From Candidatus Calditenuaceae archaeon HR02 (GTDB taxonomy: Archaea > Thermoproteota > Nitrososphaeria_A > Caldarchaeales > Calditenuaceae), in NCBI GenBank assembly GCA_002898395.1, contig BEHE01000009.1:15392-79391 (forward strand): a DNA stretch of 64,000 nt, written 5' to 3'. Positions within the stretch are counted from its first letter, which is position 1. The number at the start of each line of letters is the position of its first letter. Positions 1,631 through 35,189 of the stretch are shown here, piece by piece. Both the position numbers and the translations under genes were made by a program. The notes beneath the pieces were generated by a model. That model did no database searches, had not been told where the DNA came from, and was given only the letters and a program-made list of their open reading frames with translations.

Positions 1631-1668
1631 ACCACATTGAAACGTCAATAATTTTAAATTTTTCAATT

Positions 1669-1740
1669 TGGGGCCGGTGGGAATCGAACCCACGACCTCC
1701 GCCGTGTGAGGGCGGCGTCATACCGCTAGACCACGGCCCC
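1669..1740 (-). tRNA. tRNA-Val (anticodon CAC), no encoded CCA
   Basis: The reverse complement folds as a cloverleaf: GGGGCCG acceptor stem, anticodon loop CTCACAC, T-arm GGGTTCGATTCCC, discriminator A. Confidence 0.85.
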
Positions 1741-1802
1741 TTCTTCAGAACCGTATACCAATGCTGTAACAAATAACCCTTATCTCCTCTACATCGGAGC
1801 TG

Positions 1803-7547: not shown

Positions 7548-7879
7548 CGGGGAAGAAGAAACCGTATATAACCCTTTAAATATCATTACCAGATGGTATG
7601 TTGAAAAATTGTTACCAATATTACGGCATACTATGAAATAGATCTCCGCTAAGATTCGTCTGAGAATCCCATGTCTACTGGCCGGAGAGAATAACTTTGC
7701 CTTCATATGTACTGATTACATTATTCATAGAGAGGACAGGCGACCTAGCCCTGAGTAAGATGCACAAGGCCCATAAATGTTTATCGTAGTGATTGGTAAA
7801 CTACGGTAGAATCATAGTGATGGGTTAAACGCCCAAATTAGGGAAAAATGGGGGAGGGGGTTAGCCCAGCAGACAACCA

Positions 7880-8129
7880 GCCCAGCAACAAGGATAAACC
7901 CGAGGCCGGCATGTCAAGAAGGTTAACGGACTGGCATTTTCGCCAGTCATGTCTGGAGTTTAAACGGCCGGCCTCTTTTGGGTTTCCTAGATGTTGTTGG
8001 GCTGGTTGTCCGATGGCTAACCCCCCGTCTTTCCATTGTTTAAGTTTTTAATCCTTCACTATGGTTGTCGGATGATATTGAGTGTTTTAAGCCGCTCTCT
8101 CGGCCCCTCTTAGAGAGCCTTCTCGCGAC
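7880..8129. repeat. Intergenic repeat family C, copy 1 (~250 bp), structured, candidate ncRNA or MITE
   Basis: About 85% identical to 31928..32188; reading frame is not conserved between copies; internal hairpin gactggc/gccagtc enclosed by a gaggccgg/ccggcctc helix and an outer cccagcaaca/tgttgttggg pairing. Confidence 0.6.
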
Positions 8130-8351
8130 CTTCTACGAGTCTGTCAAATATCTGCTCCTCCAGCTCGCTCATCCTAGACTTCAGCTGGCCAAGGGCCTCG
8201 TTAAGAAGATTCTCACAGGTCTGTGCCTCGCTTAGTAGAGCGTTCCTCTCGTCTGAGAGCTGGTTGAGCTTCTTCACGGATCGGAGGTCTGGGCACTACT
8301 TATCAACCCCAATAAAGTCCCAGGTAAGATAACCACAAGGCTGGACTTCCT

Positions 8352-9551
8352 ATGCTACCAGTCATGGTAGGTTTTAAATTTAAAGAGGTAATCATGTATG
8401 TCTGGGGTTGGATGGCTGAAGAGGCGAAGAGGCCGCTCCTGATACTGGTTATTGATGAGGATAATGATGTCGGGGTTAAGGCTGGGGTACAATCCCCCAT
8501 CATAGGACGTGAAAAAAACCTGGAAGCGGCTCTGAAGCTTATCATGGCAGACCCCGAGGATGCCGATGCCAATGCGATGTTCGCCGCCATCAAGATATTC
8601 GACAATGAGTCGCATAGGTGGCCTAATGGTGTTGAGATAGCTACTGTGACGGGAAAACATGATGGTGGACTTGAGTCAGACCTGAAGATTTCAAGGGAGA
8701 TAGAAAGCGTTATCAGGCAGCTGGGGGCTACCGAGTGTATTGTAGTCTCAGACGGTCCACTCCCCTCATCACTCTCATCTATCATCAGCTCACGCATCAA
8801 GGTAGTCTCGTCCAGAACAGTAATTGTCAAGCAGAGCCAGACGATAGAGACTAGCTGGATACTATTCCTCAGATACCTCAAAATGCTCGTCTACGACACC
8901 TCCTATTCAAGAATAATTCTCGGAGTCCCCGGCATACTATTATTATTAATGGGAGTGCTTCATTTTTTCAATCTGCTCAGCCTACCCCTCCTCCTAATCT
9001 TTGTGGGAATCGCGCTCCTCGTTAGGGGGTTCGGAATAGATGCGGCCTTCTCAGGCCTCATCCGGAGACTGGCCGAGATATCGAATAAACCTAGTCTAGT
9101 ACAGCTACGTATATTCACAGCCGTTGTCGGTCTGATTCTAATAATAGTCGCTTTTGTAGCGGGTTTTCAGGCGGCCTTAAACTATCTTCAATCCGCTTTA
9201 AGGGGTGGGGAGCTAAACTTCGAGCAGGTTCTTCCGCGCATGGGACCATTCGCAGGTGTGTTGATAGTCAATAGCATAGACTTGATAGCTATTGCCGCAT
9301 TCCTCAACACAGCCTACAACATATTCTACTACTATCAGATGAAGAGTACTCGCGTTTGGAGGCATGTACAAGCCATGCTGATATTCTTCTTCCTCTGGAT
9401 TATGATGAGGCTGCTCGGAGCCTTCCTTACCACACAGAGCATCGTCTACCTCATACAGCTTGTATTGATCGCGCTGATAGGTTTCGCCTCGCTGCTAACC
9501 TCTATTACGATTATAAGATCGATCAGAAGTATGAGGGCGCCTAAGCAATGA
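8352..9551 (+). CDS. Conserved archaeal membrane protein (DUF373-like): cytoplasmic N-domain plus a multi-TM C-terminus
   Basis: Hydrophobic helices fill the C-terminal half; N-terminal LILVIDEDNDVG domain; real start may be an internal Met. Confidence 0.4.
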   Translation: MLPVMVGFKFKEVIMYVWGWMAEEAKRPLLILVIDEDNDVGVKAGVQSPIIGREKNLEAALKLIMADPEDADANAMFAAIKIFDNESHRWPNGVEIATVTGKHDGGLESDLKISREIESVIRQLGATECIVVSDGPLPSSLSSIISSRIKVVSSRTVIVKQSQTIETSWILFLRYLKMLVYDTSYSRIILGVPGILLLLMGVLHFFNLLSLPLLLIFVGIALLVRGFGIDAAFSGLIRRLAEISNKPSLVQLRIFTAVVGLILIIVAFVAGFQAALNYLQSALRGGELNFEQVLPRMGPFAGVLIVNSIDLIAIAAFLNTAYNIFYYYQMKSTRVWRHVQAMLIFFFLWIMMRLLGAFLTTQSIVYLIQLVLIALIGFASLLTSITIIRSIRSMRAPKQ

Positions 9552-10333
9552 TTGAGAAGATACTCAGGCTTTTTGGGGTGTATTCGCTCTATGAGAGATG
9601 GTTAGAGAGGATTGTGGGCAGCGGTGATATACCCCAACACCTCGCAGTAATCCTAGACGGTAATAGGCGCTGGGCTAGGAGCGTAGGTATTCCCCCAAGC
9701 AAGGCGTACAGGTTTGGCGCCGACAAGGTTGAGGAGCTTCTGAGGTGGTGCCTGAAGATCGGGATTAAAATTGTTACCCTGTATGTCTTGTCAGTTGAAA
9801 ATATAATGAGGAGGCCTAGGGAAGAGCTTGAGGAAATTTATAGGATTTTGATGGAGAAGGCTGAGAGGTTCTTGAAAGACGAGACGGTCTGGAGGGAGAA
9901 GGTTAGGTTTAGGGTGATAGGTAGGCTGGATTATCTGCCAGGCGAGCTTGCTGAGAGTCTTAGAAGGCTTGAGAGGGAGACGATGCATCATGATAGGTTC
10001 CATTTGAACATTGCAGTCGCGTACGGTGGGAGAGCAGAGATAGTTGATGCGGTCAGAAAGATCTGCAGCAAAGTTGCGGAGGGGGAACTTCAGCCAGACC
10101 AAGTTGACGAGGAGACCATCGAGCATAACTTGTATACCAATGGGCTTCCCAAGCCTGACCCCGACCTAGTCATCAGGACATCGGGTGAGGAGAGAATAAG
10201 CAACTTCCTCCTCTGGCAGATAGCTTACAGCGAGCTGGTCTTCCTAGATGTCTACTGGCCTTCATTTAGAAGGATAGACCTTCTGCGCGCCATTAGAACT
10301 TATCAGCAGAGGACACGTAGATTTGGCGGCTAA
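9548..10333 (+). CDS. uppS: Undecaprenyl-diphosphate synthase (cis-prenyltransferase, UppS)
   Basis: HLAVILDGNRRWA and RTSGEERISNFLLWQIAYSEL motifs. Confidence 0.85.
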   Translation: MIEKILRLFGVYSLYERWLERIVGSGDIPQHLAVILDGNRRWARSVGIPPSKAYRFGADKVEELLRWCLKIGIKIVTLYVLSVENIMRRPREELEEIYRILMEKAERFLKDETVWREKVRFRVIGRLDYLPGELAESLRRLERETMHHDRFHLNIAVAYGGRAEIVDAVRKICSKVAEGELQPDQVDEETIEHNLYTNGLPKPDPDLVIRTSGEERISNFLLWQIAYSELVFLDVYWPSFRRIDLLRAIRTYQQRTRRFGG

Positions 10334-11430
10334 TAGACCAGATAATCGTCTAAGGGGTAGGAGGTGAGTGGTATGGCAGATTCCTCCGTGACCAAGACTG
10401 TGTCCTCCATTCTGACACCCCACTCACCCATTATATAGATACCCGGCTCACAGGTCACCACGTTATTCTCCATGAACTGGTCTTGACTGCCAGGACCTAT
10501 TCTCGGGGGCTCATGAATATCAATCCCCACGCCGTGGCCTAGGCTGTGTATAAAGTAGGATCCCATCCCCTTGCTGCTTAGTGAGTCACGGGCTATGTCG
10601 TCAACGTAGCTGCATGAGACTCCTGGCCGCATTATGCTTTGAGCCAGCGTCTTGGCGTTTATAACGGATTCGAATGCATTCTGAAGTTTCTCATCCATCT
10701 CTTTTCCGATGTAGAAGGTCCTAGTTATATCGGAGCAGTATCCCTCTACTTTCACACCAAGATCAATGACAACTACATCACCCTTCTTTAGGACCCTATC
10801 TCTAGTCGTTCCTCTTTGGATTGGCCCGTGGGGGAAGGCTGAGCGCTCTCCGAAAGCAACTATCGGCGCGAAGGCGGGCTCTTGGCCCACACGCCTGTAA
10901 ATTTCAGCGGTCAGCTCCGCCTTGACCTCACTCTCCCTAATCCCTGGTACCAAGAGGTCTGAGGCTGCCCTCATGACCTTGTCGGAGATTGAGCAGGCTT
11001 CCCTAATCACCTCCACCTCATATGGATCCTTTGACATTCTCATGTCCCATACGAGCCTTGACTGTGGCCGCAGGTCTATACCTCCTATTAGGGCGCTGAT
11101 CTTCCTATAAGTCTCGATGTCTAGGTTGTCTATTCCGACCATTCCTCCTAACTGGCTGAGAATCTCTGCGAGGAGCGCTTCTGGCGCAGCCCCCATTTTT
11201 AACTGCACTATCTCGATCTCCTGCGAAGCCTCCTTCTCTGCGAGACCGTAGTTCATTGGTGAAACGTAGAGAATTGCTGAGCCATCTTGGCGGATAAGGA
11301 GTGTTGCTGGACCTGGTAGTCCCGTGAAGTAGAAAATGTTTGACTCGTTGATGCATATGTAGGCGTTGAATCCGGAGAGCTCCAGCCGTGCTGCAAACTT
11401 TTCAATCCTGTCCTTATACCTCAACTCCAA
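10330..11430 (-). CDS. M24 family Xaa-Pro aminopeptidase/dipeptidase
   Basis: HGVGIDIHEPP, CEPGIY and MEDTV metal-ligand motifs. Confidence 0.75.
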   Translation of the reverse strand: MELRYKDRIEKFAARLELSGFNAYICINESNIFYFTGLPGPATLLIRQDGSAILYVSPMNYGLAEKEASQEIEIVQLKMGAAPEALLAEILSQLGGMVGIDNLDIETYRKISALIGGIDLRPQSRLVWDMRMSKDPYEVEVIREACSISDKVMRAASDLLVPGIRESEVKAELTAEIYRRVGQEPAFAPIVAFGERSAFPHGPIQRGTTRDRVLKKGDVVVIDLGVKVEGYCSDITRTFYIGKEMDEKLQNAFESVINAKTLAQSIMRPGVSCSYVDDIARDSLSSKGMGSYFIHSLGHGVGIDIHEPPRIGPGSQDQFMENNVVTCEPGIYIMGEWGVRMEDTVLVTEESAIPLTSYPLDDYLVY

Positions 11431-11593
11431 TCTGCTGTCAATCTATCCGCGGACTATATCAATCTTCAACCATTAAAGCAGAATAGAAATTGTCCTGAAG
11501 ACGGTTTGAGGGGTTCTGATGAAGGGAGATTTAAACGGGAGGTAGGCTGGTTTAGCGCTTTTTCCATGTGATACTCGCCCCCGCCCTACATCT

Positions 11594-11740
11594 ATTATCT
11601 TCTTGACTTGTTTCTTAGTTTTGTGTTGCATCGGGGGCATCTAATTTGTTCTGTGTTTATGTATTGTTGGCATTTTGAGGAGTATTTAAATCACCTACCA
11701 TATGCACCACTACTAGCGTCGGGGGTATCGAACTCTCAAC
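11594..11740. repeat. Intergenic repeat family B, copy 1 (~145 bp), contains a TATA-like box (agtatttaaatc)
   Basis: About 85% identical to 31449..31590. Confidence 0.65.
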
Positions 11741-11803
11741 AAAGACGATATGGCATTATAGGGATGAGATAGGAGAAAGGAAGGATTGGTGGAAGATTTG
11801 TGA

Positions 11804-11870
11804 TAGGTTACAGAGAGGTCTAGGCAGGAGAATGAGGCGCAGACGAAAACCCGCCCCCTCCCCTTTATCC
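11804..11870. repeat. Intergenic repeat family A, copy 2
   Basis: Matches 1553..1630. Confidence 0.7.
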
Positions 11871-12099
11871 CCTCTTTTTCCTTTTTCGGATCGGTTTCGC
11901 ACCCGCATTCCATATGAAAGTAAGGTTATTCCCTGGATGCCTCCAAGGCGGGCCGTCAAGCCCCTCCCCACCACTCTTCACGCCCTTCTCCCTCACCTCC
12001 ACGACCTCTCTTATGCTCCCGAGCACCTCAAGCTCGTGCTCCAGCTCCCTAATCTTCTTATCAAGATATTCTCTTAGCTGGCTTATCCATTCTCAACCT

Positions 12100-14424
12100 T
12101 TAGGTTCGCACTACGTCGTGTATCACTATTGTGGTCTTCCCGTCTATCTTGTGTATTGTGGCGAGCGCTTTGAAGACTTTCCCCTTCTTTATTAGGTCTC
12201 TGGGGCCGTTGTATGCTGTTGCGTCGAGCCTCGCCCTAAACCTGTCATCAACCACTACTATCGCGAATCCTGGATAGATCTTCTCGACCATTATCTCGTG
12301 GACTTTCTCGGGGGCCTTGGAAGCCTTCACAGCGGCCTTTGCAACATATCTTTCACCCGACTTGACCACTAGTCCGTCCCTGACTAGCCTGTTCAACGAT
12401 ATCCTGACTATGTCGGGGCTGTGGCTGAGAAGGTCCATGGCATCGGCCATGGATAAGCCCTTAACTCCAGCCTCCAGAAGCCTGTCGTAGAGCTCTCTCC
12501 TACACCTGAGAAGCTCCCCATAGCTGATCTTGGAAGTATCAATAGAGGGTTCGCTCTCCTTGGTCTTCTCTAATTCACCTTCAACCACCACTTCTAGCGC
12601 GTCCCGCCTCCAGGGCCACGGCTCTCCGGGCTTAGGCTCAGGCCCCCTCCTCTCGACCTTGAAGCCGCTCAGCTTCTTCGAGACGTTCTCAAGGATTTTA
12701 GCCATCTTCCTAGCCCTCCTATACCCTTCCCTGAAGTAGTATTCGTCCACTGTTTTCTCCGTGATGAGAATGGTTACTTTCCCAGGTAGTCTCCTACCAG
12801 TCCTTCCCCTTCTCTGTATGTATCTTATCCCTGAGACTGCCGGCTCGTAGAATATAACGTATCCGCACTCAGGTATGTCTAGGCCCTCCTCTCCTATAGA
12901 TGTGGCTACTAGTACTTTGAATTCTCCCCTCCTGAAGGCATCTAGTATCTTCTTCTGCTCCTCCTGGCTCATCCTCGGGCCCATCTTACCCTCACCCTTA
13001 CCTATGAAGAGGTGTGCAGATACTCCTCTAGACCTTAGCCGCTCAACCAGTATCTCGGCCGTGTGCCTAATATTGGCGAATACCATAATCCTGTCACCCG
13101 GCTTCTCCCTTAGGTGCTGGTCGACTAGGGCTAGGAGGGCCTCGACCTTGCTGTGGTCCTCGCTGCACTTCTCAGCCATCCTGACTAGCTCCTGGAATTC
13201 TGGTCTCCTAGAGAGCATCTTGTGGCTCTTCAGCTCCGAGTTTGAGATCTCCCTCAGATACTCCCTCAACGAGTAGGCGTGCTGGCTCTCTATCAACTCC
13301 AAGGCATGGTAGAGGCTCAGGAGCTCAGAGCATAGTGCCACGTAGTGCATGTTCTGGCCCTTAACGCCTGAGTCTATCTCAGCCCTAAGCCTAGCCATGA
13401 GCTGGACTATCACCTTCCTGTTTATGCCCTCTAGCGGAGACCTGAGCAGGCCATATGTCTGTAGTTGCCTAGCCGTAGACTCTATCATCCGCTTTATACG
13501 GCTCCTAATCGCCTCGTATGACTGTGGGAGCCCCAGCTTAACCCACGCAACCTTAACCCCTGGAATATAGCTCGAGACATCCTCATCCTCCTCTGTCCTC
13601 CAGACAATCCTCTCTATCCAGAGGTTCTTGACGACCTCGAGCACTCTCTCCTCCTCGCTCCCCGGACTAGCTGTAAGCCCGAGAATCCTGGGCCACGGGC
13701 ATTTCCTAACGTATTCGGACGCGAGCCTAGTATAGGCGTATCTGCTCCTACTTCTGTGGCACTCGTCGAAGACTAGTAGGGCGAACTCCTCAAGCCTTAT
13801 CCAGCCCCGTCTATAGTCGTTATAGGCTGTCTGGGGTGTTGAGAATACCAGCCTGATAGAGGGGTTCTCCCAGACCATTCTCCTATTGGTGTCCACCACC
13901 TCTCCGGTAACGGCCACGGCCTCGCCCTCCGATATGTTGAGGTGTTTTAGGAAGCTCTGCCTGTGCTGTAGGACTAGCGGCTTGGTTGGAGCCATCATGA
14001 GTATTCTGCATCTAGGATGCCTGTGGAGCAGCTCTGCGGCCACTAGCTCGGCTATGACAGTCTTACCCAGTGCTGTGGGTAGGACTACTAGAGTATTGCC
14101 CTTGAGGGCTCCCCCAACCATCCCCCTCTGATAATCTCGGTCCTCGATCGTCTCGGTCCTAACCATGGGATGAGTTACAAACTGCCTCATCTCCACCCTC
14201 TCAACCTCCTCCGTTGTTCTCTCTTGGACGACTGTTTGGTTGGGCGTCGGGGATGCCAATAGACCCTCAGCAACCTTCACCGCATAGATGTGCTTACAGT
14301 CCCTGCCCTGCTTCTTGGCCCTGTATACGTAGTCAGGGCATGTGCACGTGAATTTTTCCCCGTCAAACGTTACTCTGTAGGTCTTTGAGGGGTCTTCCTG
14401 GCTGGGGACATCCCAGACACGCAT
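12100..14424 (-). CDS. Hef/FANCM-family SF2 helicase with N-terminal SWIM-type zinc finger and C-terminal winged-helix-like region; no ERCC4 nuclease domain
   Basis: N-terminal FTCTCPDY...CKHIYAV (CxCxnCxH); Walker A LPTALGKT; DECH box; LGLTASPG motif III typical of Hef/RIG-I/FANCM. Confidence 0.7.
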   Translation of the reverse strand: MRVWDVPSQEDPSKTYRVTFDGEKFTCTCPDYVYRAKKQGRDCKHIYAVKVAEGLLASPTPNQTVVQERTTEEVERVEMRQFVTHPMVRTETIEDRDYQRGMVGGALKGNTLVVLPTALGKTVIAELVAAELLHRHPRCRILMMAPTKPLVLQHRQSFLKHLNISEGEAVAVTGEVVDTNRRMVWENPSIRLVFSTPQTAYNDYRRGWIRLEEFALLVFDECHRSRSRYAYTRLASEYVRKCPWPRILGLTASPGSEEERVLEVVKNLWIERIVWRTEEDEDVSSYIPGVKVAWVKLGLPQSYEAIRSRIKRMIESTARQLQTYGLLRSPLEGINRKVIVQLMARLRAEIDSGVKGQNMHYVALCSELLSLYHALELIESQHAYSLREYLREISNSELKSHKMLSRRPEFQELVRMAEKCSEDHSKVEALLALVDQHLREKPGDRIMVFANIRHTAEILVERLRSRGVSAHLFIGKGEGKMGPRMSQEEQKKILDAFRRGEFKVLVATSIGEEGLDIPECGYVIFYEPAVSGIRYIQRRGRTGRRLPGKVTILITEKTVDEYYFREGYRRARKMAKILENVSKKLSGFKVERRGPEPKPGEPWPWRRDALEVVVEGELEKTKESEPSIDTSKISYGELLRCRRELYDRLLEAGVKGLSMADAMDLLSHSPDIVRISLNRLVRDGLVVKSGERYVAKAAVKASKAPEKVHEIMVEKIYPGFAIVVVDDRFRARLDATAYNGPRDLIKKGKVFKALATIHKIDGKTTIVIHDVVRT

Positions 14425-14457
14425 CTAAGCCTATCTGGCCCACGATTCATAAATATT

Positions 14458-14754
14458 TTGAATGCCTTCATATGTTTGATGAGCTATCGTAGGGGTAGGA
14501 GGTTTGAGTATGAGGTTAGGGATTATTTTGGGAGTAGGGGCTGGCTTGTAATAAGGGCCGCTAGGAGCAAGCCAGTAGACCTGGTGTGTATTAAGGGTGG
14601 TAGGGTGGTTCTGGTTGAGTGCAGGTATGCTGGAGGAAGGCTCACGAGGAGTGAGAGGAGGAGCCTAGCGAGGATGGCTAGGAGGTATCGTGTCGGTGTA
14701 ATTATAGCTCATAGGAGGGTGAGGGGAGGTCTGGAGCTTACGACAGTGAAGTAG
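14458..14754 (+). CDS. Mini Holliday-junction-resolvase-like PD-(D/E)xK nuclease (Hjc family); probable start at the internal Met (MSYRRG)
   Basis: Aligns by eye with Hjc: RGxxxExxVxxxxxxxGWxVIRAAxS...VDLVxIKGGxVVLVECR; divergent from the helicase gene. Confidence 0.55.
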   Translation: MNAFICLMSYRRGRRFEYEVRDYFGSRGWLVIRAARSKPVDLVCIKGGRVVLVECRYAGGRLTRSERRSLARMARRYRVGVIIAHRRVRGGLELTTVK

Positions 14755-14838
14755 ACTCGATTATCTATTGGAGGCTGTGGAGCCTAGGCCTCATAGTCAG
14801 GCGGCCGCAGATATAACAGATGTCGGGGACGGCTGGGG

Positions 14839-15177
14839 CTATATTTCTAGTGACTCGTCTGGGCTTGTTTCCTTGGGGTTTACCTTTTCAATGGCCTTTA
14901 GAACGTCTTCTAGCCTCTCGTCGGAGAGTAGTTTCCTGAATGTCTCAAGCTCGTCTACTGTCCTTAGGATTAATCCCCTCTTCTTGGTTGGCGCTCCATC
15001 ATCACCCACAGGGTTAATCTCTACTAGTAGTGATGCTGGCCTGCCTCTAGATGCTGGTGCCTTGACGACGAATATTCCCGGAGAGCCCCTAACCGGAACC
15101 CTCTGCCAATCCCTACCACTCTCAAGAACCCTCCTCAAAGACTCTTCCAGCGTCATCGGCTGAGGAGGTGAATCCAT
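14839..15177 (-). CDS. Hypothetical protein
   Basis: ORF only; no motif recognised. Confidence 0.3.
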   Translation of the reverse strand: MDSPPQPMTLEESLRRVLESGRDWQRVPVRGSPGIFVVKAPASRGRPASLLVEINPVGDDGAPTKKRGLILRTVDELETFRKLLSDERLEDVLKAIEKVNPKETSPDESLEI

Positions 15178-15669
15178 GCATATAAGCGTAGCAGCCTCTC
15201 TTCCTAGCCATAAGCCATCAAAATAATGATTAGACAGTGGATAAGTCAGTTACGCTCAATGGATGAATTGAATACTGTTCCGATGTCTGAAGCTACTCAG
15301 AGGGCCTGGTTGGGAAGAGGTCTAAGAAAGCCTCCAAGAAGTCACGCGTCAGGGAGAAGGCTAGGAAGACAGCTAAGAAGCCTGTAGAGGCTGGGGAGAA
15401 GCCTGCTGAGACCGAGCCTGTAACTGGGGTTTGGGACTCCGACTTAGCTATCCTCCCTAAATATCGTCATTTTTCGTGGTTCCATCTTGTTAGAAGGTCT
15501 TTTCCAACGCTTGCCACATCCGCTTTCCTTATCGACTACGTAGATTACGGGTCTCTGCATATTTAGTGCGTGTCCCTTGCCTTACCTTGAGGGCGAATAT
15601 GTCCTGGCCCTTCTGCGTCGAGACACTTATTGACTTCCAATACAAGATAAAAGCGGATTCGCAACAGCA

Positions 15670-17949
15670 CTAAGCAACCTCGTCGATCATAGTAGGGGCG
15701 TTCGTGGACAACTCCCTTTCAAACCTGAATATCTTAGCTTCGGCGCCCTCGAACACTTCCTCGTCATGGGTTATAATTATCACCTGCCTAACTGCCTTGC
15801 TCAGGCTAGTGAAGACGTCTAGCAGCCTCTTTCTATTTTCTGAGTCTAAATGGATTGTGGGTTCATCGAGAATGAAGAAGCCCAGTCTCTGGGCGCCCAA
15901 CACATCCCCTATCGCGAACCTGAGTGCCAGGGCAAGGGCAACTTTCTCTCCCCCGCTTAGCCTACTCATATCCACTTCTCTGCCCCTGAAGAAGCATTTG
16001 AACATGATTTTTACGCCGCTTTCCTCGATCTTGACATCATCTATCCTGACGTCAAAGGCGTCTAAGTAGCTCTTGGCGTGGTCTGCAACCTTTCTGAATA
16101 TCCACGTCCTCAGGCTCCTCAATACTACACCATCGCGGTAGAACAACTCGTTCCTTACCTTATCCATGAGCCTGTAGAACCTCTCGGCCCTGACAAGTAC
16201 TTCCCTGACCCTTTGCAACTCTTTAATCTTCTTTTTAGCCTCCTCAAGCTCTTTCTCAACGCTTTCCAATCTTGCCTCTCGATCGCTGATCAATTTTATG
16301 AGACCCTTTTCTTCGACTTCCAGCCTTCCGAGTTCTTCAGGATTGAATTCCTTTTTCCGAGCCTCCTTCACTCTCTCTTTCAGCCAAGGGAGGAGCTGCT
16401 CTCCCTCTTCTCCGATTAGCCTACTAATGTCCTCGAGTAGCTGGTCTTCTAGATTGACTTCTCCCCAGATCACTTGATTTAGCGTCTCCAAACTCCGCTT
16501 AGCCTCCTCTAACATGGCTTTAGCTTTCTTAACACCTTCCGGGCCCCCGATCTTTTCTAGTTCTTCCGACGCCCTCTTAACCTCTTCACGTAGCCATGAG
16601 ACCTCTTTCCCATATAACTTGCTGAGGTTATCTCTCTCCTTCTTGGCTTCATCTAATTTCTTTGTGAGAGAGCGTAGTTCCCGGTCTATTTCCTCGAGCT
16701 GCTTACTTACCTGGTCGCGCTCCTTTTCCCGGTTGGCAACATGGCTTGCTAAGGCGGAGCTATACGCCTCTGAGACCACCGCCACAACCTCTTCTACTTC
16801 TTGGTCTACCTGTAGGCTGAGGAGATTTATCTGGCCTCCCTTACTAATAGCTAGGGTTCTGCCCAGCTCGATCGCGTCATCCCTAAGCTTCTCGGCTTTG
16901 ACGCGGGCCTCCTTTTCAAGTTCTTTTAAGGTCTTAGCTTTCGAAGCATCCACCTTGACCCTGCCCAGCTCGTCTTCTATCTCCTTCAAGCGTTTACTCG
17001 CTTCTTCCCTCCTCGCCTTCAGTGAGAATAAGTCGCCTTTAATCTTCTCGATCTTCTTATCAAGTTCCTCTACACTCTTAACTCTCTTTTCTATATCGTC
17101 CTTCAACTCTATCAACTTAAGATACTCTAAGCCCTTCTCCGAGATGTCTCGCAACCGGGTCACTTTATCATTCAATAAATCCCTAAGCGTTAGGAGGTCT
17201 AATCGTATTTTTTCAAGAAGTTCTCTCACCTGTCTCAGCTCCTTAATCCTTGCGTCTACTTTTTCTTTCATTCGTTTAAGCTTATCTAGCTCCTTTTGTA
17301 GTGATGCTCTTGTTTCCTCACCTGTTTCGGCCTTCTTTTCAAGCCCTCTTAGTTCTTCACCCACCTTATCGGCCTCTCGCGGGGGCCTCCCAACCTCCCT
17401 GACCACCCTCTCTTCAAAGCTTTTGAGGACTTCAAGCATGGCATAGTAGGCTTTTTCCATGGCAGTGAGACCCATTAAGTCGTCGAACAGCTCTTTGAGG
17501 TCTTTTGGATCAGCGGAGAGTATCTTATCGAGTTCTCCCTGCTGGATTATCACCGCGGTTCTCATCCTATCGTAGTTTAGTTCGAACAGTTCTTGAACAG
17601 CCTTTGATACGGTTTCTTCCCCTCTCTTCTCACCGGAGGCAATTAATTCCCCATCCTTTCTCAGCGTAGCGGATTCAAGGTTTCCTCTCACGTCAAAGCT
17701 CCTAACGATCTGATACTTACTGCCCCTATACTCGAATTCGAGCTCAACTCTACCGCTGTCTGTCCCGTCTCTCACAATATTCCTATTTCCGCCCTTCATG
17801 TGCTTCCCATAGAGGGCGTAGGTTATCCCGTCTATCACGGAGCTCTTGCCAGAGCCGTTTCTCCCAAGGAAGATAGTCAATCCTTCTGGAAACTTTATCT
17901 CGGTTTCTTTGTGGCAGGTGAAGTTTAGGAGCTTAACCCTCACTATCAC
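15670..17949 (-). CDS. rad50: Rad50-type SMC-like ATPase (DSB repair), no recognisable CxxC zinc hook
   Basis: N-terminal GRNGSGKSS Walker A; long coiled coil; C-terminal LSGGEKV signature; FILDEPTIHLD Walker B; only two Cys in the whole protein. Confidence 0.8.
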   Translation of the reverse strand: MIVRVKLLNFTCHKETEIKFPEGLTIFLGRNGSGKSSVIDGITYALYGKHMKGGNRNIVRDGTDSGRVELEFEYRGSKYQIVRSFDVRGNLESATLRKDGELIASGEKRGEETVSKAVQELFELNYDRMRTAVIIQQGELDKILSADPKDLKELFDDLMGLTAMEKAYYAMLEVLKSFEERVVREVGRPPREADKVGEELRGLEKKAETGEETRASLQKELDKLKRMKEKVDARIKELRQVRELLEKIRLDLLTLRDLLNDKVTRLRDISEKGLEYLKLIELKDDIEKRVKSVEELDKKIEKIKGDLFSLKARREEASKRLKEIEDELGRVKVDASKAKTLKELEKEARVKAEKLRDDAIELGRTLAISKGGQINLLSLQVDQEVEEVVAVVSEAYSSALASHVANREKERDQVSKQLEEIDRELRSLTKKLDEAKKERDNLSKLYGKEVSWLREEVKRASEELEKIGGPEGVKKAKAMLEEAKRSLETLNQVIWGEVNLEDQLLEDISRLIGEEGEQLLPWLKERVKEARKKEFNPEELGRLEVEEKGLIKLISDREARLESVEKELEEAKKKIKELQRVREVLVRAERFYRLMDKVRNELFYRDGVVLRSLRTWIFRKVADHAKSYLDAFDVRIDDVKIEESGVKIMFKCFFRGREVDMSRLSGGEKVALALALRFAIGDVLGAQRLGFFILDEPTIHLDSENRKRLLDVFTSLSKAVRQVIIITHDEEVFEGAEAKIFRFERELSTNAPTMIDEVA

Positions 17950-19069
17950 TCCCAGCCCAATCCCTCGGCCACGATTTCCAAAGCTTCCAGACAGCTTCCT
18001 TCGCGTTTACTAGATCTCCTGAAGCTAGGCGAGGGAGTAGCTCGTTTAGGGCAAAATCTATGACCTTCTCGTCTCCTATCGCCTTCACCGCGAGCCTTCT
18101 GAGCTCCCCATCAATACTAATCTCCGGCTCGCTTGCGTATACCTTTCCCTCAGTTGGGGCTGGAATCACCTGTAGCCTCTTGATTATGAACTTATCACTA
18201 AGCCTCTGCTCAATACTCTGGACACTTACCGGCCTATCGGCCTTGACGACAAGCCATAAGCATGGCTTGGACGGATAGTCGACGCCGGTGATCTCCTTGA
18301 CCTTCTCGTCAAGCTCTCTTACATCTACCTCGAGTCTGAGTTTCGGCCTAACGTTTGGGAGCCTGACCCATTCGGCTAGGGCCTGATCACCTGATAAATC
18401 CACTATGAAGACGCCGCACTCACCGGAGTCGTCGACCTTGACCCAATGCGTTGCTCCGGGGTAGGCTAGTAGTCCACTTCCCCAATTCCGTTTATAGCTC
18501 TTATGAATGTGCCCCATCGCATAGTAGTCGAATCCGGCAGGTAGCTCGAATATCGAGAGCTCGGCTCCAAGCTCCCAGGCCTCCTTTATCCCCTGATGGA
18601 GGACTAGGACCTTCTTTCCCCCTATATTCGGTAGCATCCTCTGAATTTTTTCAAATTTTTCTATGAGAGATTTCCACTCAACCCGCTTATGCTTATGGAG
18701 GCCTATTACGGTAACCCCTCCAACTTGGTATGGTTCGCCTGTTCCAATATATCTGCCGAGGCCCTGTAGCTGTAGGATTATGGGATGCGGCGTTGAGGGG
18801 ACGTTGCTTATGTCATGCTCTCCGAGCGTGAATAAGAATGGGATGCCGCGCCCTTTCAGCTTTCTCACTTCCTGGATCAAGACCTTCATTGCTGTTCCAT
18901 AGGGTTTCGGCTCATGTAGAATGTCTCCTGAGTGGATTACGAGTTCAACTCTTTCTCTGATGAATAGGTCTATGGCATCCTTAAACGCATTGTAGTGGTC
19001 TTCTTCTCTCTCTGGCTCGACTCCCGCATGGACCCCCAGATGCGTGTCGGATATGTGACCGATCATCAT
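17933..19069 (-). CDS. mre11: Mre11 DSB-repair nuclease (calcineurin-like phosphoesterase)
   Basis: MMIGHISDTHLG, HSGDILH, GEHD and MGHIH phosphoesterase motifs; overlaps the rad50 start. Confidence 0.85.
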   Translation of the reverse strand: MMIGHISDTHLGVHAGVEPEREEDHYNAFKDAIDLFIRERVELVIHSGDILHEPKPYGTAMKVLIQEVRKLKGRGIPFLFTLGEHDISNVPSTPHPIILQLQGLGRYIGTGEPYQVGGVTVIGLHKHKRVEWKSLIEKFEKIQRMLPNIGGKKVLVLHQGIKEAWELGAELSIFELPAGFDYYAMGHIHKSYKRNWGSGLLAYPGATHWVKVDDSGECGVFIVDLSGDQALAEWVRLPNVRPKLRLEVDVRELDEKVKEITGVDYPSKPCLWLVVKADRPVSVQSIEQRLSDKFIIKRLQVIPAPTEGKVYASEPEISIDGELRRLAVKAIGDEKVIDFALNELLPRLASGDLVNAKEAVWKLWKSWPRDWAGSDSEG

Positions 19070-20562
19070 AGCTTTATCAGCTCCTCCGTCGAGTAGTCGG
19101 AACCAGAACCATACTCTCTCTCCCATAAATCGACTGCATCCAAGTCTCTACCGATCAACTTCTCCTCTACGAGATCCACCTTAACGAGGGCTGGAACTTT
19201 GATGAACTGGCCTGCGAGTATCATCTCTCCTGGGTTCAGGCTTGGTAGAGAGGTGCCGAGCTCTTCTGATACGTCGTCGGTGACCTCCCTGACGAAGTTC
19301 TGGTCTTTTGGATGTATTAGACCTGAGATCGCAAAGCTCCCCATCTGACTTATCGTGTCGGCGTCCAGCTTGCTCGGCCTCTGCGAGATGATTATCAGCG
19401 ATACCCCGAACTTCCTACCCTCCCTAGCAATTCTCGCGATTATCTCCGAGCACCTAGTCCGCCTTTCTGATGGGAGGAATGCATGAGCCTCCTCTATCAC
19501 CACTATCACAGGCGACTTGAACTTCGCCCCGCCCTCGCCCCTAACCGCATTCTTCCTATCCTGCAGTATCTCTTCTAGGTAGCGATCAACTATGATTTGG
19601 GACTGATATTCCGTCAACTCTGAGATATCGAGGACGTTTACCCTATTGTTGACGATTACATCGAGTGGGCTTCTAGCCGAAGGATCGAATACCTTTCCCC
19701 ACACGGTTAGAGCCCTGTTGATTATCTCGGTAACGCTCACAGCCCTAATCCTCGTCTGGAAATCAAAGTTGTTATCATCCACGGCTATTGCCTGAAGTCT
19801 TCCAATAATAGCCCCCCAGAAGTCTTCAGCCTCCCTAACCTCTTGAGTATAGACTTGTTGAAGTAAGCCCCTCTGCCTTTCGGCATCCCTCCTGACTCCC
19901 ACCAAGTCTGCCAACTCCTCTGCATCTAGGTATCGGGGATTTATCTTCGGTATGGTAATCTTTATTCCGGGGATTCTTAACTGATCGTATTCTCCATGAT
20001 AGTCGAATATCACCATGGTCCCATGTCTTTCGGAGACCTTCTTAGCGAGAAGGGCTAAGAGATTTGACTTGCCCTTGCCAGTTGCCGCCAATATCGCTAG
20101 ATGCCTCGAGGCGACCATGTTCAAGTTTATCGATACCCTGACCTCGGGCCTTCTCAGCAGATAGCCCACGCCCACCCATCTCTTCCCCTCGGAGCCGTAG
20201 ATACTCTTCAGCAAATCATCTCCGGCCGGTTTAACAGATGCTCCAGGCTCAGGCGGCAACGTAGGGTAAATTCTCCTACCCTCCAATAGCTCATTAACGA
20301 GTCCAAGAGCCCTAGCGATGCCTATCCTAACCCTATCTCTCGGGTTCTTACTGCTTGCCCGCCTCACCTCGTCAGCAGTTTGGTAATCTGTTTCATTTTG
20401 CAACAACTCACTGATGTTCCTAAACCCCTCAACCATGTAGACTATGGGCCCATCCTCGGTGTCCACAACTACATAATCCCCAACTCTTACTGGGTACTTC
20501 GCCACGAACTCTATCCTATCGGGTCTCGCCTCCCCTATCACGATTCCGACCTCGTCGCTCAT
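19066..20562 (-). CDS. herA: HerA hexameric DNA helicase/translocase
   Basis: HLAILAATGKGKS Walker A; N-terminal HAS barrel region; position inside the Mre11 operon. Confidence 0.85.
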   Translation of the reverse strand: MSDEVGIVIGEARPDRIEFVAKYPVRVGDYVVVDTEDGPIVYMVEGFRNISELLQNETDYQTADEVRRASSKNPRDRVRIGIARALGLVNELLEGRRIYPTLPPEPGASVKPAGDDLLKSIYGSEGKRWVGVGYLLRRPEVRVSINLNMVASRHLAILAATGKGKSNLLALLAKKVSERHGTMVIFDYHGEYDQLRIPGIKITIPKINPRYLDAEELADLVGVRRDAERQRGLLQQVYTQEVREAEDFWGAIIGRLQAIAVDDNNFDFQTRIRAVSVTEIINRALTVWGKVFDPSARSPLDVIVNNRVNVLDISELTEYQSQIIVDRYLEEILQDRKNAVRGEGGAKFKSPVIVVIEEAHAFLPSERRTRCSEIIARIAREGRKFGVSLIIISQRPSKLDADTISQMGSFAISGLIHPKDQNFVREVTDDVSEELGTSLPSLNPGEMILAGQFIKVPALVKVDLVEEKLIGRDLDAVDLWEREYGSGSDYSTEELIKL

Positions 20563-21446
20563 TCCTCAAGCACCTCCCTAGCCTCGACCCATCCGGTTAG
20601 GCCGGCCGTCTTACAGATAAGATCCATTAACTGGTCTGGCAGGTTGGCGGTCTTGTGGGCTAGCCTGAGGGCGTAGGGATAGCCAGCGATGGACCTTTCA
20701 CGCAGAACGTCTATGAACCATTTGACGGAGTCTTCTTCTACTACGGCTGGCACTTCTATGTGCAGGGCGTTGGAGTGCTCTGACAATCTAACGTAGAATA
20801 TCGAGAACTTATAATCTTCTCTTTCGATGACATGTGGTGCCGTATACCCTACCCCCTTGGTTGCATGGTTAATGTAATATACGTCTCCGAGAACTCCGCC
20901 GAATAGGCTTTTATCATGCGAATATTTCGAGACGAATGCTAGCTTATCGTTGCCCATGAGAGGTTTAACGTAGGCCATGTATTCAGTCTGAAGGCTTTTG
21001 GAAATTCTTTTACTGATATCAGCCAGCCTAGCAATAAGGGAGCCATCAACTAGAACTAGGTCAGGGTCCTCCTCTTCGGAAACATTATAGGCTATGCTAT
21101 GCTCGTGGATCTCGGCCTGGTACTTAAGGAAGAGATCTGGAGACAGGGCCGCGTCGTAGGGGTCGCCTGATAACATATCAACATCCGTTACGGATTGGTA
21201 GGTGTTCACGGCCTCATCAACGGCTGCCGCCTTCATGGCGTAGATATAGAAGCCTGTGTAGAGCCTGTAGTTCCAACCGCTGTCAATAGCGAGGATACCA
21301 GCCCTTCTCGGCTTTGGGCTATATTCTATATAGCAAGCCCTCGCCCTGTCCAAGATCTCTTTAACCGTTCCCGCCCCATCCGTTCTCTTAAATTCCTCGA
21401 GCTTGGCCTTCAGGCGGACGGCCTTCTCGAAAAGCTCCTCCAGCAT
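20559..21446 (-). CDS. nurA: NurA 5'-3' nuclease
   Basis: ILAIDSGWNYRL motif carrying the catalytic Asp; translationally coupled to herA. Confidence 0.75.
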   Translation of the reverse strand: MLEELFEKAVRLKAKLEEFKRTDGAGTVKEILDRARACYIEYSPKPRRAGILAIDSGWNYRLYTGFYIYAMKAAAVDEAVNTYQSVTDVDMLSGDPYDAALSPDLFLKYQAEIHEHSIAYNVSEEEDPDLVLVDGSLIARLADISKRISKSLQTEYMAYVKPLMGNDKLAFVSKYSHDKSLFGGVLGDVYYINHATKGVGYTAPHVIEREDYKFSIFYVRLSEHSNALHIEVPAVVEEDSVKWFIDVLRERSIAGYPYALRLAHKTANLPDQLMDLICKTAGLTGWVEAREVLEE

Positions 21447-21559
21447 CGAGTAAAGGCTTGACCAACGGGTATATATGAATTGGTGGTCCTCCCAGCGATT
21501 TTTCTCAGCATCTCCACTATCGATTCATGGATACATACTTCAAACTAGCTCCAAACCTT

Positions 21560-21949
21560 CTAGATTAGATTGGTTAGGTAACTCTTAATCCGTATATAAC
21601 TGGGAGCTCGGTCACTATGTGGAGCTCCCTGAATAATTTGTCTCGAGATTACTATGCTTAGCTCCCCCCTGGCTTGGGCTTCCAGCCTCCTAGTGTGTGC
21701 TGCCTTTATCAGCTCCGCTATTGATTCTGGGTCTCTCCTTATGTCTGATGCCTGTATTCTGAATACGTCGTATCCAGCCTCCCTCAGCGTCTCAATCTTC
21801 CTCATGTCCTTCTCCTGTATCCTTTCCTGGTAGTGCTGGAGGCCGTCAACCTCGACGACTATCATGCTATCCGGTATGAGTATGTCCACGTTATATCCCT
21901 CGAAGTACACGTTGGTCACGTGGCGTATGTCCCGTCTCCAGAGCTCCAC
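21560..21949 (-). CDS. DUF559-type endonuclease domain protein (Vsr/restriction-endonuclease-like fold)
   Basis: VDILIPDSMIVVEVDGLQH ... KIETLREAGYDVFRI pattern. Confidence 0.55.
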   Translation of the reverse strand: MELWRRDIRHVTNVYFEGYNVDILIPDSMIVVEVDGLQHYQERIQEKDMRKIETLREAGYDVFRIQASDIRRDPESIAELIKAAHTRRLEAQARGELSIVISRQIIQGAPHSDRAPSYIRIKSYLTNLI

Positions 21950-22181
21950 CGAGAGCCTGCGCTCCTACCAAGAAACCCTCAGCATCTTAACCCTGACCCT
22001 TAGTCTTGAAGAGCCTTTATCAATTGCCTCCATGATGGCCCTCTCGACACCCTCGTCGCCCTCCGCTACCAAGTATATTGCAAAGCCGTTGCTCGGGTGC
22101 TTAGTCGTATATGTGACCGGCGCATGCTCCAGCAGACGCCTCACACTCTTGACTGAAGAACTTTTAACACCTCCATCCTTC

Positions 22182-30581: not shown

Positions 30582-31418
30582 TTAGTGTTTGACTATCTCT
30601 ACTCCAAGCTGTCGGAGCTTCTCAACCACGAGTCCCCTATGCTGACCATGGATACCCTTCCAGTCAATAACCGCCACACTACACCCGTCCACAACACTTC
30701 TAATAGCCTCACCCAGAAGATCGAGCGCCCCGGGGATAAAGTATTTTGGAAGTATGTGTCCAAAGTCATGCTCGCCGAGGCTCATCAGCCGGGTAAAGGT
30801 GGGTGCATAGTGTCCTCCGCCTACGCCTATCGCGGCAGACCTTGACGGCCCCGCGAGACACGCCTCAATACACGCCTCAGCCACGGCCTCCGCCGCCCTC
30901 TCGTCAGTCCTAGCCTCGACAGGCCCACCGAACTCAACGTATACCATTGGTACAGGTGAGTAGGGGCCGTGATGTGTGACCTCCAGCCCCACCCACCAGT
31001 CTCGCAGACTGCTGCTTTCCTCGACGGCCCGTCTGAGAGTGTTGTAGGCAGCCCTGATGGCACCAGCTAGTGTTAGAGACAGTGCGCGCGGTTTTCCTCC
31101 CATGCTCACGTCGCAAGTCCAGTTGCCCGTTGCGTGAGTAGTAAGTGCCTTTGTCCCACTCTCCGACCTATGGGAGGATGCTACTACTATGAGGTCTGCT
31201 TTGAGTTCCAATATCTCCTCCTCTGTGAGGTAGAGGTGGTGTTTATCGACGACTATTGCTGATACTGGGCGCCCGCGCAGAAACTCCACTCCCGCTTCTT
31301 GGACAGGCTCAAACCCAAACCTCTCTACAAGGCACTCCCTAACAAGCATTGACGAGCTATCAGCACGTGATATGAGGATAAAGCGTCCGGCCAAGGGCTT
31401 TGAAGGGTTAAACGGCAC
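30582..31418 (-). CDS. dtdA: D-aminoacyl-tRNA deacylase, archaeal type (DtdA)
   Basis: ALTTHATGNW, THHGP, GVGGGHYAP and GHILPKY motifs. Confidence 0.75.
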   Translation of the reverse strand: MPFNPSKPLAGRFILISRADSSSMLVRECLVERFGFEPVQEAGVEFLRGRPVSAIVVDKHHLYLTEEEILELKADLIVVASSHRSESGTKALTTHATGNWTCDVSMGGKPRALSLTLAGAIRAAYNTLRRAVEESSSLRDWWVGLEVTHHGPYSPVPMVYVEFGGPVEARTDERAAEAVAEACIEACLAGPSRSAAIGVGGGHYAPTFTRLMSLGEHDFGHILPKYFIPGALDLLGEAIRSVVDGCSVAVIDWKGIHGQHRGLVVEKLRQLGVEIVKH

Positions 31419-31448
31419 CCCGACTATTTATAGAGTCGTGAGTTAAGG

Positions 31449-31590
31449 ATTATCTTCTCGACTTGTTCCTTAGTTTTGTGTTGCATCTAGGGCATCTTTG
31501 TTTATGTATTGTTGGCTTTTTGAGCAGTATTTAAATCCCCTATTGTATGCATCACCCCTAGCGGCGGGATAGTATCTTAGACTCACATTT
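31449..31590. repeat. Intergenic repeat family B, copy 2
   Basis: Matches 11594..11740. Confidence 0.65.
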
Positions 31591-31927
31591 TCAAGCCTTA
31601 CCATAATGGTGTCTGGGGAGTAGTCTTACCTTGATTGGCCTCTCCCTATCTAATAATAGCTCATAATCATGTATTGGTTAGGGAGCTCTAGCTGAGCTAT
31701 TGACGTATGTTGATTTCAGTAAGTCATTTAGGAGGGTTCGTGGATACTTGAGGCTGTATCGGCGACGGTCGTATAATAGGAGGTATGGACATGCGACGCG
31801 TGAAGCGTTGGGAGGACTTACGATGGCGGTAATTGGTAGATATAGGTTGAGGGCTAGGGATCAAGAGGATGTGCTGAAGATGTGGCTGATGTTCTGAGGG
31901 GAGACATGGAGGCCGGCGGGTATACCG

Positions 31928-32188
31928 GCCCAGCAACAGTGATAAAACCCGAGGCCGGTATGACCCACGGGTTTAAACGGACTGGCATTTTCGCCAGTCA
32001 TGTCCAACACATAAACAACCGGCCTCGTTTGGGTTTCCTAGATGTTGTTGGGATGGTTGTCCGCCGGCTAACCCTCCCATCTTTCCATTGTTTGAGTGTT
32101 TAACACATCACTATGATTATCTTATCTAATGGTATTAAGTGTTTTAAGTCGCGCCTCCTCAGTCCAGCTTAGAGAGCCTTCTTGCGAC
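31928..32188. repeat. Intergenic repeat family C, copy 2
   Basis: Matches 7880..8129; helices kept by compensatory changes (gaggccgg...ccggcctc vs cgaggccgg...ccggcctcg). Confidence 0.6.
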
Positions 32189-32277
32189 TGATGGTTCTTC
32201 GCCCGTCAACTCTTTGAATAGAGGGAGTAGAAGTATCGATACAATGATAGGCAGATTAAAAGGGGCCAGGGGAAGGG

Positions 32278-32811
32278 ATGGGCGAGGCTGCCGGCCGCGT
32301 GGCAGAGGCGTTAGAGAGGGTGGGGCTCAGAAGCGAGGTTTTCACCGATCATGGTGGTTACCCAGTCGTGTGGGGGGAGCTTAGGGAGGAGCGGCATGGC
32401 ACCCTTCTAATTTATAACCACTACGATGTCCAGCCACCAGACCCCCTGGAGAAATGGGCTTCACCACCCTTCCAGCCGACCATTAGAAACGGTAGAGTGT
32501 ATGCTAGGGGTGCATGCGACAATAAGGGGAACCTAGCAGCAAGGCTATGTGCCTTAGACCTACTGCTGGACGCTATCGGCGAGGTGCCCCTAAACATCAA
32601 GTTCCTAATAGAGGGTGAAGAGGAGATTGGCAGCCCACATCTCAGCAGGCTGTTATGGTTGATGCAACAAGAGGGTGGCGGGACTATTTTTACCTGCAGA
32701 CGAGGGGGAAGAGGAATTAAACTCGCTAGGAGAAGGGATAACCATAATCATAGAAGTTGTGGAAGAGAAAAATGGTGTGTAAGACTAGGGAAAACAATAC
32801 TTGTTAGTTAA
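32278..32811 (+). pseudogene. M20-family peptidase (ArgE/DapE-like) N-terminal fragment, truncated
   Basis: NHYDVQP and GACDNKG M20 motifs are present; homology is lost after ~140 aa and the ORF runs into low-GC sequence; full-length enzymes are ~380-400 aa. Confidence 0.6.
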
Positions 32812-32947
32812 AAAAATACTGTGACCGAAATCAAAGAGGATAGAATATGTCTTTAAATCCGAACACTGAATTTTTAAACCATCTACACCATCTTCAACGA
32901 AGCCCGAAAGAACCCGGCGACCCAGCACAACGCCTTGCTGGTGATAG

Positions 32948-34902: not shown

Positions 34903-35037
34903 TTATGAGCTACATTAGGTTCTCTGAAGAAGAGTGGGAAGAGGAGGAAGAGTGGGAGGAGGACTTCGAGGAAGAGGAGGAAGAGTGGGAGGAAGAGGAG
35001 TGGGAAGAGGAGGAGTTAGAGGAAGAGGAGGAGGTAT
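34903..35037 (+). CDS. Micro-ORF encoding a 44-aa E/W/F-only acidic peptide (MSYIRFSEEEWEEEEEWEEDFEEEEEEWEEEEWEEEELEEEEEV) on a homopurine tract
   Basis: ATG ~35 nt downstream of ttttatattt TATA-like box; uninterrupted GAR-repeat DNA; could be simple-sequence DNA rather than a gene. Confidence 0.25.
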
Positions 35038-35189
35038 AGTCTAAGCCACCGATAACCAGAATTTTTTATTTAGAGGGTCTAGGACAGTTTTCTCATTGCG
35101 AGGTTTACCGAAATTTGGATACACTGGCCTCCGCGGTTAGGGCTTATCGCTGGATAAGCGTTATAACACTGGTGCGAGAATAGTTATAC

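Follow-up and report, generated by a model that had tools for sequence, protein, structure and literature searches.

The 64,000-nucleotide stretch analyzed here (the window), from the metagenome-assembled genome (MAG) of the hot-spring archaeon Candidatus Calditenuaceae archaeon HR02, harbors two copies of a non-coding, hairpin-forming repeat of ~260-330 bp, here termed family C. The copies are homologous direct repeats lying 24 kb apart, and the stretches of the window between them hold housekeeping genes. HR02 itself has been described in an enrichment study (PMC5877337). Alignment places copy 1 at ~7856-8137 and copy 2 at ~31905-32195, and blastn pairs them over 265 bp with 79.6% identity (E = 3e-58); a 21-mer and a 25-mer core block of the family occur exactly twice each in the window, as opposed to zero occurrences expected. 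A first-pass annotation had reported the repeat at 7880-8129 and 31928-32188, with an identity of about 85%. The repeat is real and the homology does lie there, but the figure was slightly generous (207 of 261 columns are identical over these intervals, that is, 79% overall and 83% ungapped) and the unit is larger, with the palindrome of copy 1 starting as far to the left as 7810. The GC content of family C is 49%.

Both copies are built around a long imperfect palindrome followed by a conserved, non-palindromic tail (Table 1). The arms of the copy 1 palindrome are ~96 nt each and contain segments of 35 and 43 nt that are 80-84% complementary. The central hairpin is enclosed in a block of 29 nt (7925-7953) in which the copies do not differ at any position, and a second perfectly identical block spans 25 nt. 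The helices singled out by the first-pass annotation (gaggccgg/ccggcctc and the hairpin gactggc-attttc-gccagtc) are present in both copies, as is the outer pairing cccagcaaca/tgttgttggg, with one G·U pair. Copy 2 comprises an inner palindrome at ~31912-32068 and an outer right arm at 32076-32118, for which the only pairing partner is the outer left arm of copy 1 (inverted repeat I1). The copy 1 tail carries a TATA-like motif, TTTTAAG on the plus strand and CTTAAAACAC on the minus strand, and its end coincides with the start of a gene fragment, the homology of which to the protein P0035 ends at 8131. The right boundary of family C matches in both genomic contexts to within ~7 bp (8130-8137 and 32189-32195).

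Table 1. Positions in the window of the two family C copies, their parts and the patches that contain them.
Feature	Position	Strand	Basis or remark
Patch 1, 815 bp	7557..8371	.	Replaces the cupin gene and flanks of relatives L003-L008
Copy 1, imperfect palindrome, 257 bp	7810..8066	.	Inverted repeats I1 and I2, folding
Copy 1, left arm of palindrome	~7810-7905		
Copy 1, centre of palindrome, 64 bp	7906-7969		
Copy 1, right arm of palindrome	~7970-8066		
Central hairpin GACTGGC-ATTTTC-GCCAGTC, 7-bp stem perfectly conserved	7929..7948	.	Repeat D9
Copy 1, conserved non-palindromic tail, 71 bp, right of palindrome	8067..8137	.	Alignment, repeat D11
Internal fragment of the gene for a 258-aa coiled-coil protein (P0035 family), residues ~80-140	8131..8331	-	tblastn, phmmer
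Patch 2, 1,460 bp	31414..32873	.	Absent from L084 and L083
Copy 2, palindrome without outer left arm	31905..32118	.	Alignment, inverted repeat I1, folding
Copy 2, tail homologous to 8067-8137	32119..32195	.	Alignment, D11, blastn
Truncated M20 peptidase open reading frame, GBC71257.1	32278..32811	+	Pfam profile, PDB 4mmo alignment

The products of the open reading frames (ORFs) lying over the two copies (67 and 73 aa) are 33% identical across 58 aa. Such a low protein identity despite ~80% identity at the DNA level indicates that no reading frame has been maintained over family C, in agreement with what the first-pass annotation had noticed, and these ORFs matched no Pfam or PHROGs family. The same annotation placed both copies in unusually long gene-free gaps, and the length of these gaps (~800-860 bp) is borne out, but they are not empty, for each contains an internal fragment of a gene. 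It had likewise contemplated that the copies might be pieces of a protein-coding pseudogene family; the ORFs over the repeat itself show no Pfam or PHROGs homology and their frames are not kept, and it is the immediate right-hand neighbors of the copies that are pseudogene fragments. The ORFs in the gaps are identical to HR02 proteins deposited in GenBank (GBC71230.1, GBC71255.1, GBC71256.1 and GBC71257.1), three of which look wrong: GBC71230.1 (8110-8277, minus strand) represents a pseudogene piece from the interior of a gene, GBC71256.1 (73 aa; 31882-32103, plus strand) corresponds to an ORF superimposed on the palindromic repeat, and GBC71257.1 is an M20 fragment in spite of its name, succinyl-diaminopimelate desuccinylase.

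The corresponding loci of relatives were obtained by means of the UppS gene, the DtdA gene and short contigs from the same population. At locus 1, the genes on either side of the gap are collinear with the window in six relatives (L003-L008), at 72-89% DNA identity, and in all of them a 113-aa cupin gene (Cupin_2, E = 1e-16) lies between a coiled-coil gene and a DUF373 gene. The DNA that occupies this interval in the window (patch 1) is unrelated and contains no trace of the cupin gene, and a distant blastn comparison of the patch with the phage and plasmid collections gave no match. Copy 1 is followed immediately on its right by the fragment of the P0035 family, which is 79% identical to residues 93-140 of P0035 (E = 1.3e-13, phmmer) and which appears in GenBank as the 55-aa hypothetical protein GBC71230.1. 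On a metagenome contig from Caldarchaeales (L086, 303-4786), an intact P0035 gene lies directly downstream of a eukaryote-like cluster encoding ubiquitin, E2, E1 and a JAB deubiquitinase, a position that suggests a link between this protein and the ubiquitin system.

Locus 2 presents a comparable arrangement. In the two relatives available there, L084 (86-88% DNA identity to the window) and L083 (~70-73%), the DtdA and CN-hydrolase genes are separated by 137 and 133 bp, respectively, at the point where the window contains patch 2. A direct repeat, TTAAAC (31408-31413 and 32874-32879), flanks this patch on both sides and occurs only once in L084. The patch comprises a further repeat, D2/D3 (31449-31568), copy 2 and, ~65-80 bp further right, an M20 peptidase fragment. 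The M20 ORF covers only positions 1-84 of the 206 in the Pfam profile and aligns with residues 26-145 of the 437-aa enzyme in PDB entry 4mmo; it accounts for ~28% of an M20 peptidase. The left junction of patch 2 is confirmed by an independent Logan contig (L085). An assembly artefact was rejected on the strength of this contig and of the divergence of the sequences involved, the arms being only ~80% complementary and the copies only ~80% identical.

Family C is thus absent at both loci from every relative compared (L003-L008, L083 and L084; 70-89% DNA identity), although this absence concerns the larger patches and not a clean insertion of family C alone, and both patches are mosaics in which an internal fragment of a cellular gene lies to the right of the repeat. 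Searches with blastn and with an nhmmer profile of the two copies found no further copies, either within the window or across 1.3 Mb of related loci, syntenic sites included, and no comparable long palindrome was seen in ~175 kb of relatives' loci. Exact core 21-24-mers had no match in GTDB species genomes, JGI metagenomes or IMG/VR, sets that apparently do not include the HR02 genome itself, and there was no similarity to 50,697 phage and virus records, 72,556 plasmids or IMG/VR. The copy number, within the window and the collections searched, is therefore two in 64 kb, which leaves a multi-copy spread unproven. As far as these searches reach, the sequence of family C is new, but the kind of element to which it corresponds is already known.

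Other repeats and variable junctions lie in the vicinity. Repeat D2/D3, represented in patch 2, has another copy at 11594-11723 (~81% identity over 130 bp) and a weak third one at 61787-61835. Its copies each sit a short distance upstream of a gene on the minus strand, inward of the left border of a lineage-specific segment by 35-150 bp, and contain a TATA-like box (GTATTTAAAT); the repeat has no match in Rfam and is absent from the loci of relatives, and contig L085 ends within it. Repeat D4 (1544-1626 and 11796-11877; 86% identity over 83 bp) has one copy ~45 bp from the 3' end of a tRNA-Val gene and another near the left end of a 10.8-kb segment (11445-22265), near the right end of which a partial piece is found (~22185-22215). 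The G-rich end of D4 (GGGATAAGGGGGGAGGGGG) is very similar to the 7841-7860 stretch of the left arm in copy 1 of family C; this motif was defined post hoc. The 10.8-kb segment is missing at the same position in four relatives (L003, L004, L005 and L007), where window position 11443 is followed by 22267 within ~45 bp; it encodes a SWIM/SNF2-type helicase, Rad50, Mre11, HerA, NurA and a DUF559 endonuclease-like protein, and may represent a repair operon that was translocated or, alternatively, an island. A Logan contig from run DRR101361 (L001) is 100% identical to window positions 9405-11568 but beyond that point reads into the gene of an APC-type amino-acid permease, which the window lacks altogether, diverging right after the permease ATG, which points to strain heterogeneity or to a hypervariable junction. 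In L003, positions 1783-2143 hold a tandem pair of partial copies of the tRNA-Val region (window 1665-1775); tandem partial tRNA duplicates are the usual scar left by integrative elements at a tRNA gene. Finally, 34926-35039 is a run of 9-15-bp repeats of the GAAGAG/TGGGAG type, which, if translated, would endow a short ORF with an acidic C-terminal tail rich in Glu and Trp; at the equivalent place, L084 has a 44-aa gene.

The pronounced folding of family C raises the question of whether it acts as RNA or as DNA. The copy 1 region (7800-8140) has a minimum free energy of -155 kcal/mol, with z-scores of -9.2 on the plus strand and -9.9 on the minus strand, and copy 2 presents a plus-strand z-score of -4.8. 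A gene encoding a long hairpin RNA (~170-260 nt), with its promoter in the conserved tail, would account for these plus-strand values, for the preservation of nested helices in both copies, in which all 55 consensus pairs can form (two of them altered on both sides and four through wobble changes), and for a divergence that falls mostly in internal loops. It would also fit the minus-strand form of the TATA-like motif, which lies ~22-26 nt upstream of the right edge of the copy 1 palindrome and, read by eye, is 100% conserved in the tail, and the run of five T in the left arm. The promoter was nonetheless picked out by eye, which does not amount to a test, and neither the outer left arm nor the T-run is present in copy 2.

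The remaining evidence argues against this RNA gene, which we consider rather improbable. The two strands fold to a similar extent, at -138.7 (plus) and -128.7 kcal/mol (minus) for full copy 1, and at -105 versus -103 and -85.4 versus -85.7 kcal/mol for the cores of the family, and the arm mismatches of the G·U type are as numerous on the plus as on the minus strand (8 versus 7 in copy 1 and 10 versus 10 in copy 2). Equal folding and the lack of a G·U strand bias imply that the symmetry belongs to the DNA duplex rather than to one transcript. A search of Rfam 15 with both copies, a check that had been proposed in the first-pass annotation, returned nothing at gathering scores and only chance-level matches at E <= 10, the best of them being a plant miRNA model with 21.7 bits against a gathering score of 190. 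The co-varying pair announced in that annotation, an extra c...g in copy 2, is no covariation, for copy 1 has a C·T mismatch at that place; the true double changes are a C-G to U-A replacement atop the gaggccgg helix and an A-U to G-C replacement in the outer stem. These two compensatory pairs, which come from two sequences only and have no statistical weight, were equalled by 139 of 500 shuffles. Moreover, the putative gene would be missing from all close relatives at both loci. Inspection by eye also led us to reject H/ACA and C/D sRNAs, as the lower stem is not followed by an ACA box and neither a K-turn nor C/D boxes are present.

Differences between the copies affect 8 of 110 paired columns and 31 of 70 unpaired ones, a contrast that is inflated because the structure was derived from the same two sequences. 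The conservation of stems is compatible with a structural constraint on RNA, with one on DNA or with patchy gene conversion, and the conserved paired columns, together with the perfect 29- and 25-nt blocks, could reflect a constraint imposed by RNA or protein binding or, again, patchy gene conversion.

Another possibility is that the palindrome is an origin-like or terminal-repeat structure left behind by an integrated virus or plasmid. Both arms of family C contain inverted G-rich GGAAA-N3-GGGGG(G) motifs, ~175 bp apart, which we take to resemble archaeal origin recognition boxes; family C would share with archaeal origins the presence of inverted elements of this kind. A 20-mer version of the motif is common to family C and to repeat D4, which adjoins the tRNA-Val gene and, with its partial third piece, lies near both ends of the 10.8-kb lineage-specific segment, and this tRNA gene is an integration hot spot in L003, which carries duplicated tRNA fragments. 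The G-rich motif was, on the other hand, defined post hoc, and the palindrome centre is not AT-rich, with 52% GC versus 51% for the window. Family C differs from archaeal origins in having neither an AT-rich unwinding element nor an adjacent orc1/cdc6 gene, as well as in its two copies being situated 24 kb apart in lineage-specific DNA. No transposase, integrase, Orc1/Cdc6 or viral gene was detected among the ORFs scanned with Pfam (most large ORFs in 696-40136), and the viral and plasmid collections listed above offered no match. A viral or plasmid origin for family C hence seems very unlikely. An integron attC site was also considered and rejected, since there is no cassette array and housekeeping genes separate the copies.

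A more prosaic possibility is that family C is older DNA endowed with neither mobility nor function, which was copied twice as filler at double-strand breaks or through illegitimate recombination. Both copies do lie inside larger mosaic patches of unrelated fragments, a 6-bp microhomology brackets patch 2, the truncation point of copy 2 bears no relation to any structural boundary, and the ends of family C show no target-site duplication. The loci also vary within the sampled population, as attested by the divergence of contig L001 at 11568. Passive duplication would not, however, predict that both copies share their right end in two unrelated contexts, which suggests a defined element end instead of random breakage. 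Neither would it readily explain why stems are far better conserved than internal loops, and three repeat families at insertion junctions within 64 kb are more than random filler predicts. We regard a passive origin as unlikely on the whole, while according it an appreciable chance.

Given that family C is non-coding, consists largely of inverted-repeat arms, is lineage-specific and has a defined end, we tentatively favor, at somewhat less than even chances, its interpretation as a relic foldback or MITE-like selfish repeat. The presence of other interspersed repeats (D2/D3 and D4) at comparable junctions, which are sites of genome plasticity, lends support to the same interpretation. Between the two possibilities envisaged in the first-pass annotation, a noncoding RNA and a nonautonomous mobile element, the mobile or selfish one fits the new evidence, whereas the RNA one gains nothing from it; family C has the appearance of a selfish or mobile DNA relic rather than that of a conserved RNA gene. 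In mechanistic terms, a transposase or recombinase might have recognized the inverted ends of the repeat (ends AATCATAGTGATGGGTTAAAC) in trans and moved it; alternatively, family C may have been carried along passively when DNA patches were inserted. As a long palindrome, it may also have constituted a fragile site, at which hairpin extrusion would be followed by cleavage and by microhomology-mediated repair, and this fragility could have helped create the surrounding patchwork of filler DNA. That family C was once mobile in its own right, and that palindrome fragility contributed to the patchwork, is inferred and not directly shown. Since copy 2 is truncated, the family is probably inert now.

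The comparison with miniature inverted-repeat transposable elements reveals relevant similarities and several differences. Like prokaryotic MITEs, of which Sulfolobus SM1-SM4 and Coxiella QMITE2 are examples, family C is small, non-coding and intergenic, presents inverted-repeat ends and a very stable stem-loop, varies in presence between related genomes and is associated with genome plasticity (PMC10969869). It is short (a 257-bp palindrome plus a 71-bp tail), terminal inverted repeats are apparent in copy 1, with copy 2 keeping the inner arms only, and insertion polymorphism is observed at orthologous sites, though for whole patches. Unlike MITEs, however, family C is palindromic throughout instead of having only terminal inverted repeats (TIRs) of 20-30 bp, is not AT-rich, lacks a known cognate IS and has been seen in two copies. 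Furthermore, both copies share an asymmetric, non-palindromic tail of ~70 bp, which is unexpected for a simple MITE with two TIRs and counts against the selfish interpretation. Target-site duplications, another check proposed in the first-pass annotation, do not bound the repeat itself: none was found between 7800-7809 and 8067-8076, nor at the end of the tail, and the TTAAAC repeat delimits the whole of patch 2 and not family C. The target-site duplications of MITEs are known to decay (PMC10969869). The membership of family C among MITEs is, in consequence of these mixed features, not established.

Together with MITEs, whole-length palindromic repeats such as ERIC come closest to family C in the way they work, and a further class is also worth considering. 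Like the ERIC/IRU sequences of enterobacteria, family C is imperfectly palindromic from end to end, lies dispersed between genes, has stems that are better conserved than loops and can fold on either strand. ERIC sequences are ~127 bp long, common to several genera and often co-transcribed with neighboring genes; family C, in contrast, is twice as long, occurs, as far as seen, in a single MAG lineage and resides in inserted patches. In a similar vein, eukaryotic foldback elements and the gene capture of the Pack-MITE or Helitron type resemble family C in that the repeat consists mostly of long inverted arms and has fragments of unrelated host genes next to a defined end. It departs from such capture in that the fragments lie outside the arms and not between them, in the lack of a known transposase (no transposase remnant was detected with Pfam in ten ORF segments of the flanks) and in the existence of only two cases. 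To our knowledge, no member of this foldback, Pack-MITE or Helitron-like class has been described in archaea.

This last parallel leads to a bolder interpretation, according to which family C would be the functional end of a hitherto undescribed mobile element of archaea, or the site of a palindrome-driven form of break repair, by which pieces from the interior of host genes are captured and moved elsewhere. The idea stems from the fact that both copies end at the same nucleotide, within the ~7 bp indicated above, and are there joined to unrelated fragments, one from a coiled-coil protein associated with a ubiquitin operon and the other from an M20 peptidase. The association with gene fragments comes from two cases, and we deem this interpretation a very long shot. 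Were it true, it would constitute a prokaryotic analogue of Pack-MITE or Helitron transduplication, but a new mechanism would come into view only if the association with gene fragments proved to be systematic.

On a practical level, the analysis flags three HR02 proteins in GenBank as spurious or fragmentary, marks hypervariable junctions at which MAG assemblies break and supplies a sequence probe for strain-level variation. The favored interpretation of family C as a relic foldback or MITE-like selfish repeat, if true, would provide a first glimpse of such repeats, and of patchwork insertions, in the Caldarchaeales (formerly Aigarchaeota), a thermophilic group whose mobile elements are essentially uncharacterized and whose genomes are almost exclusively MAGs.
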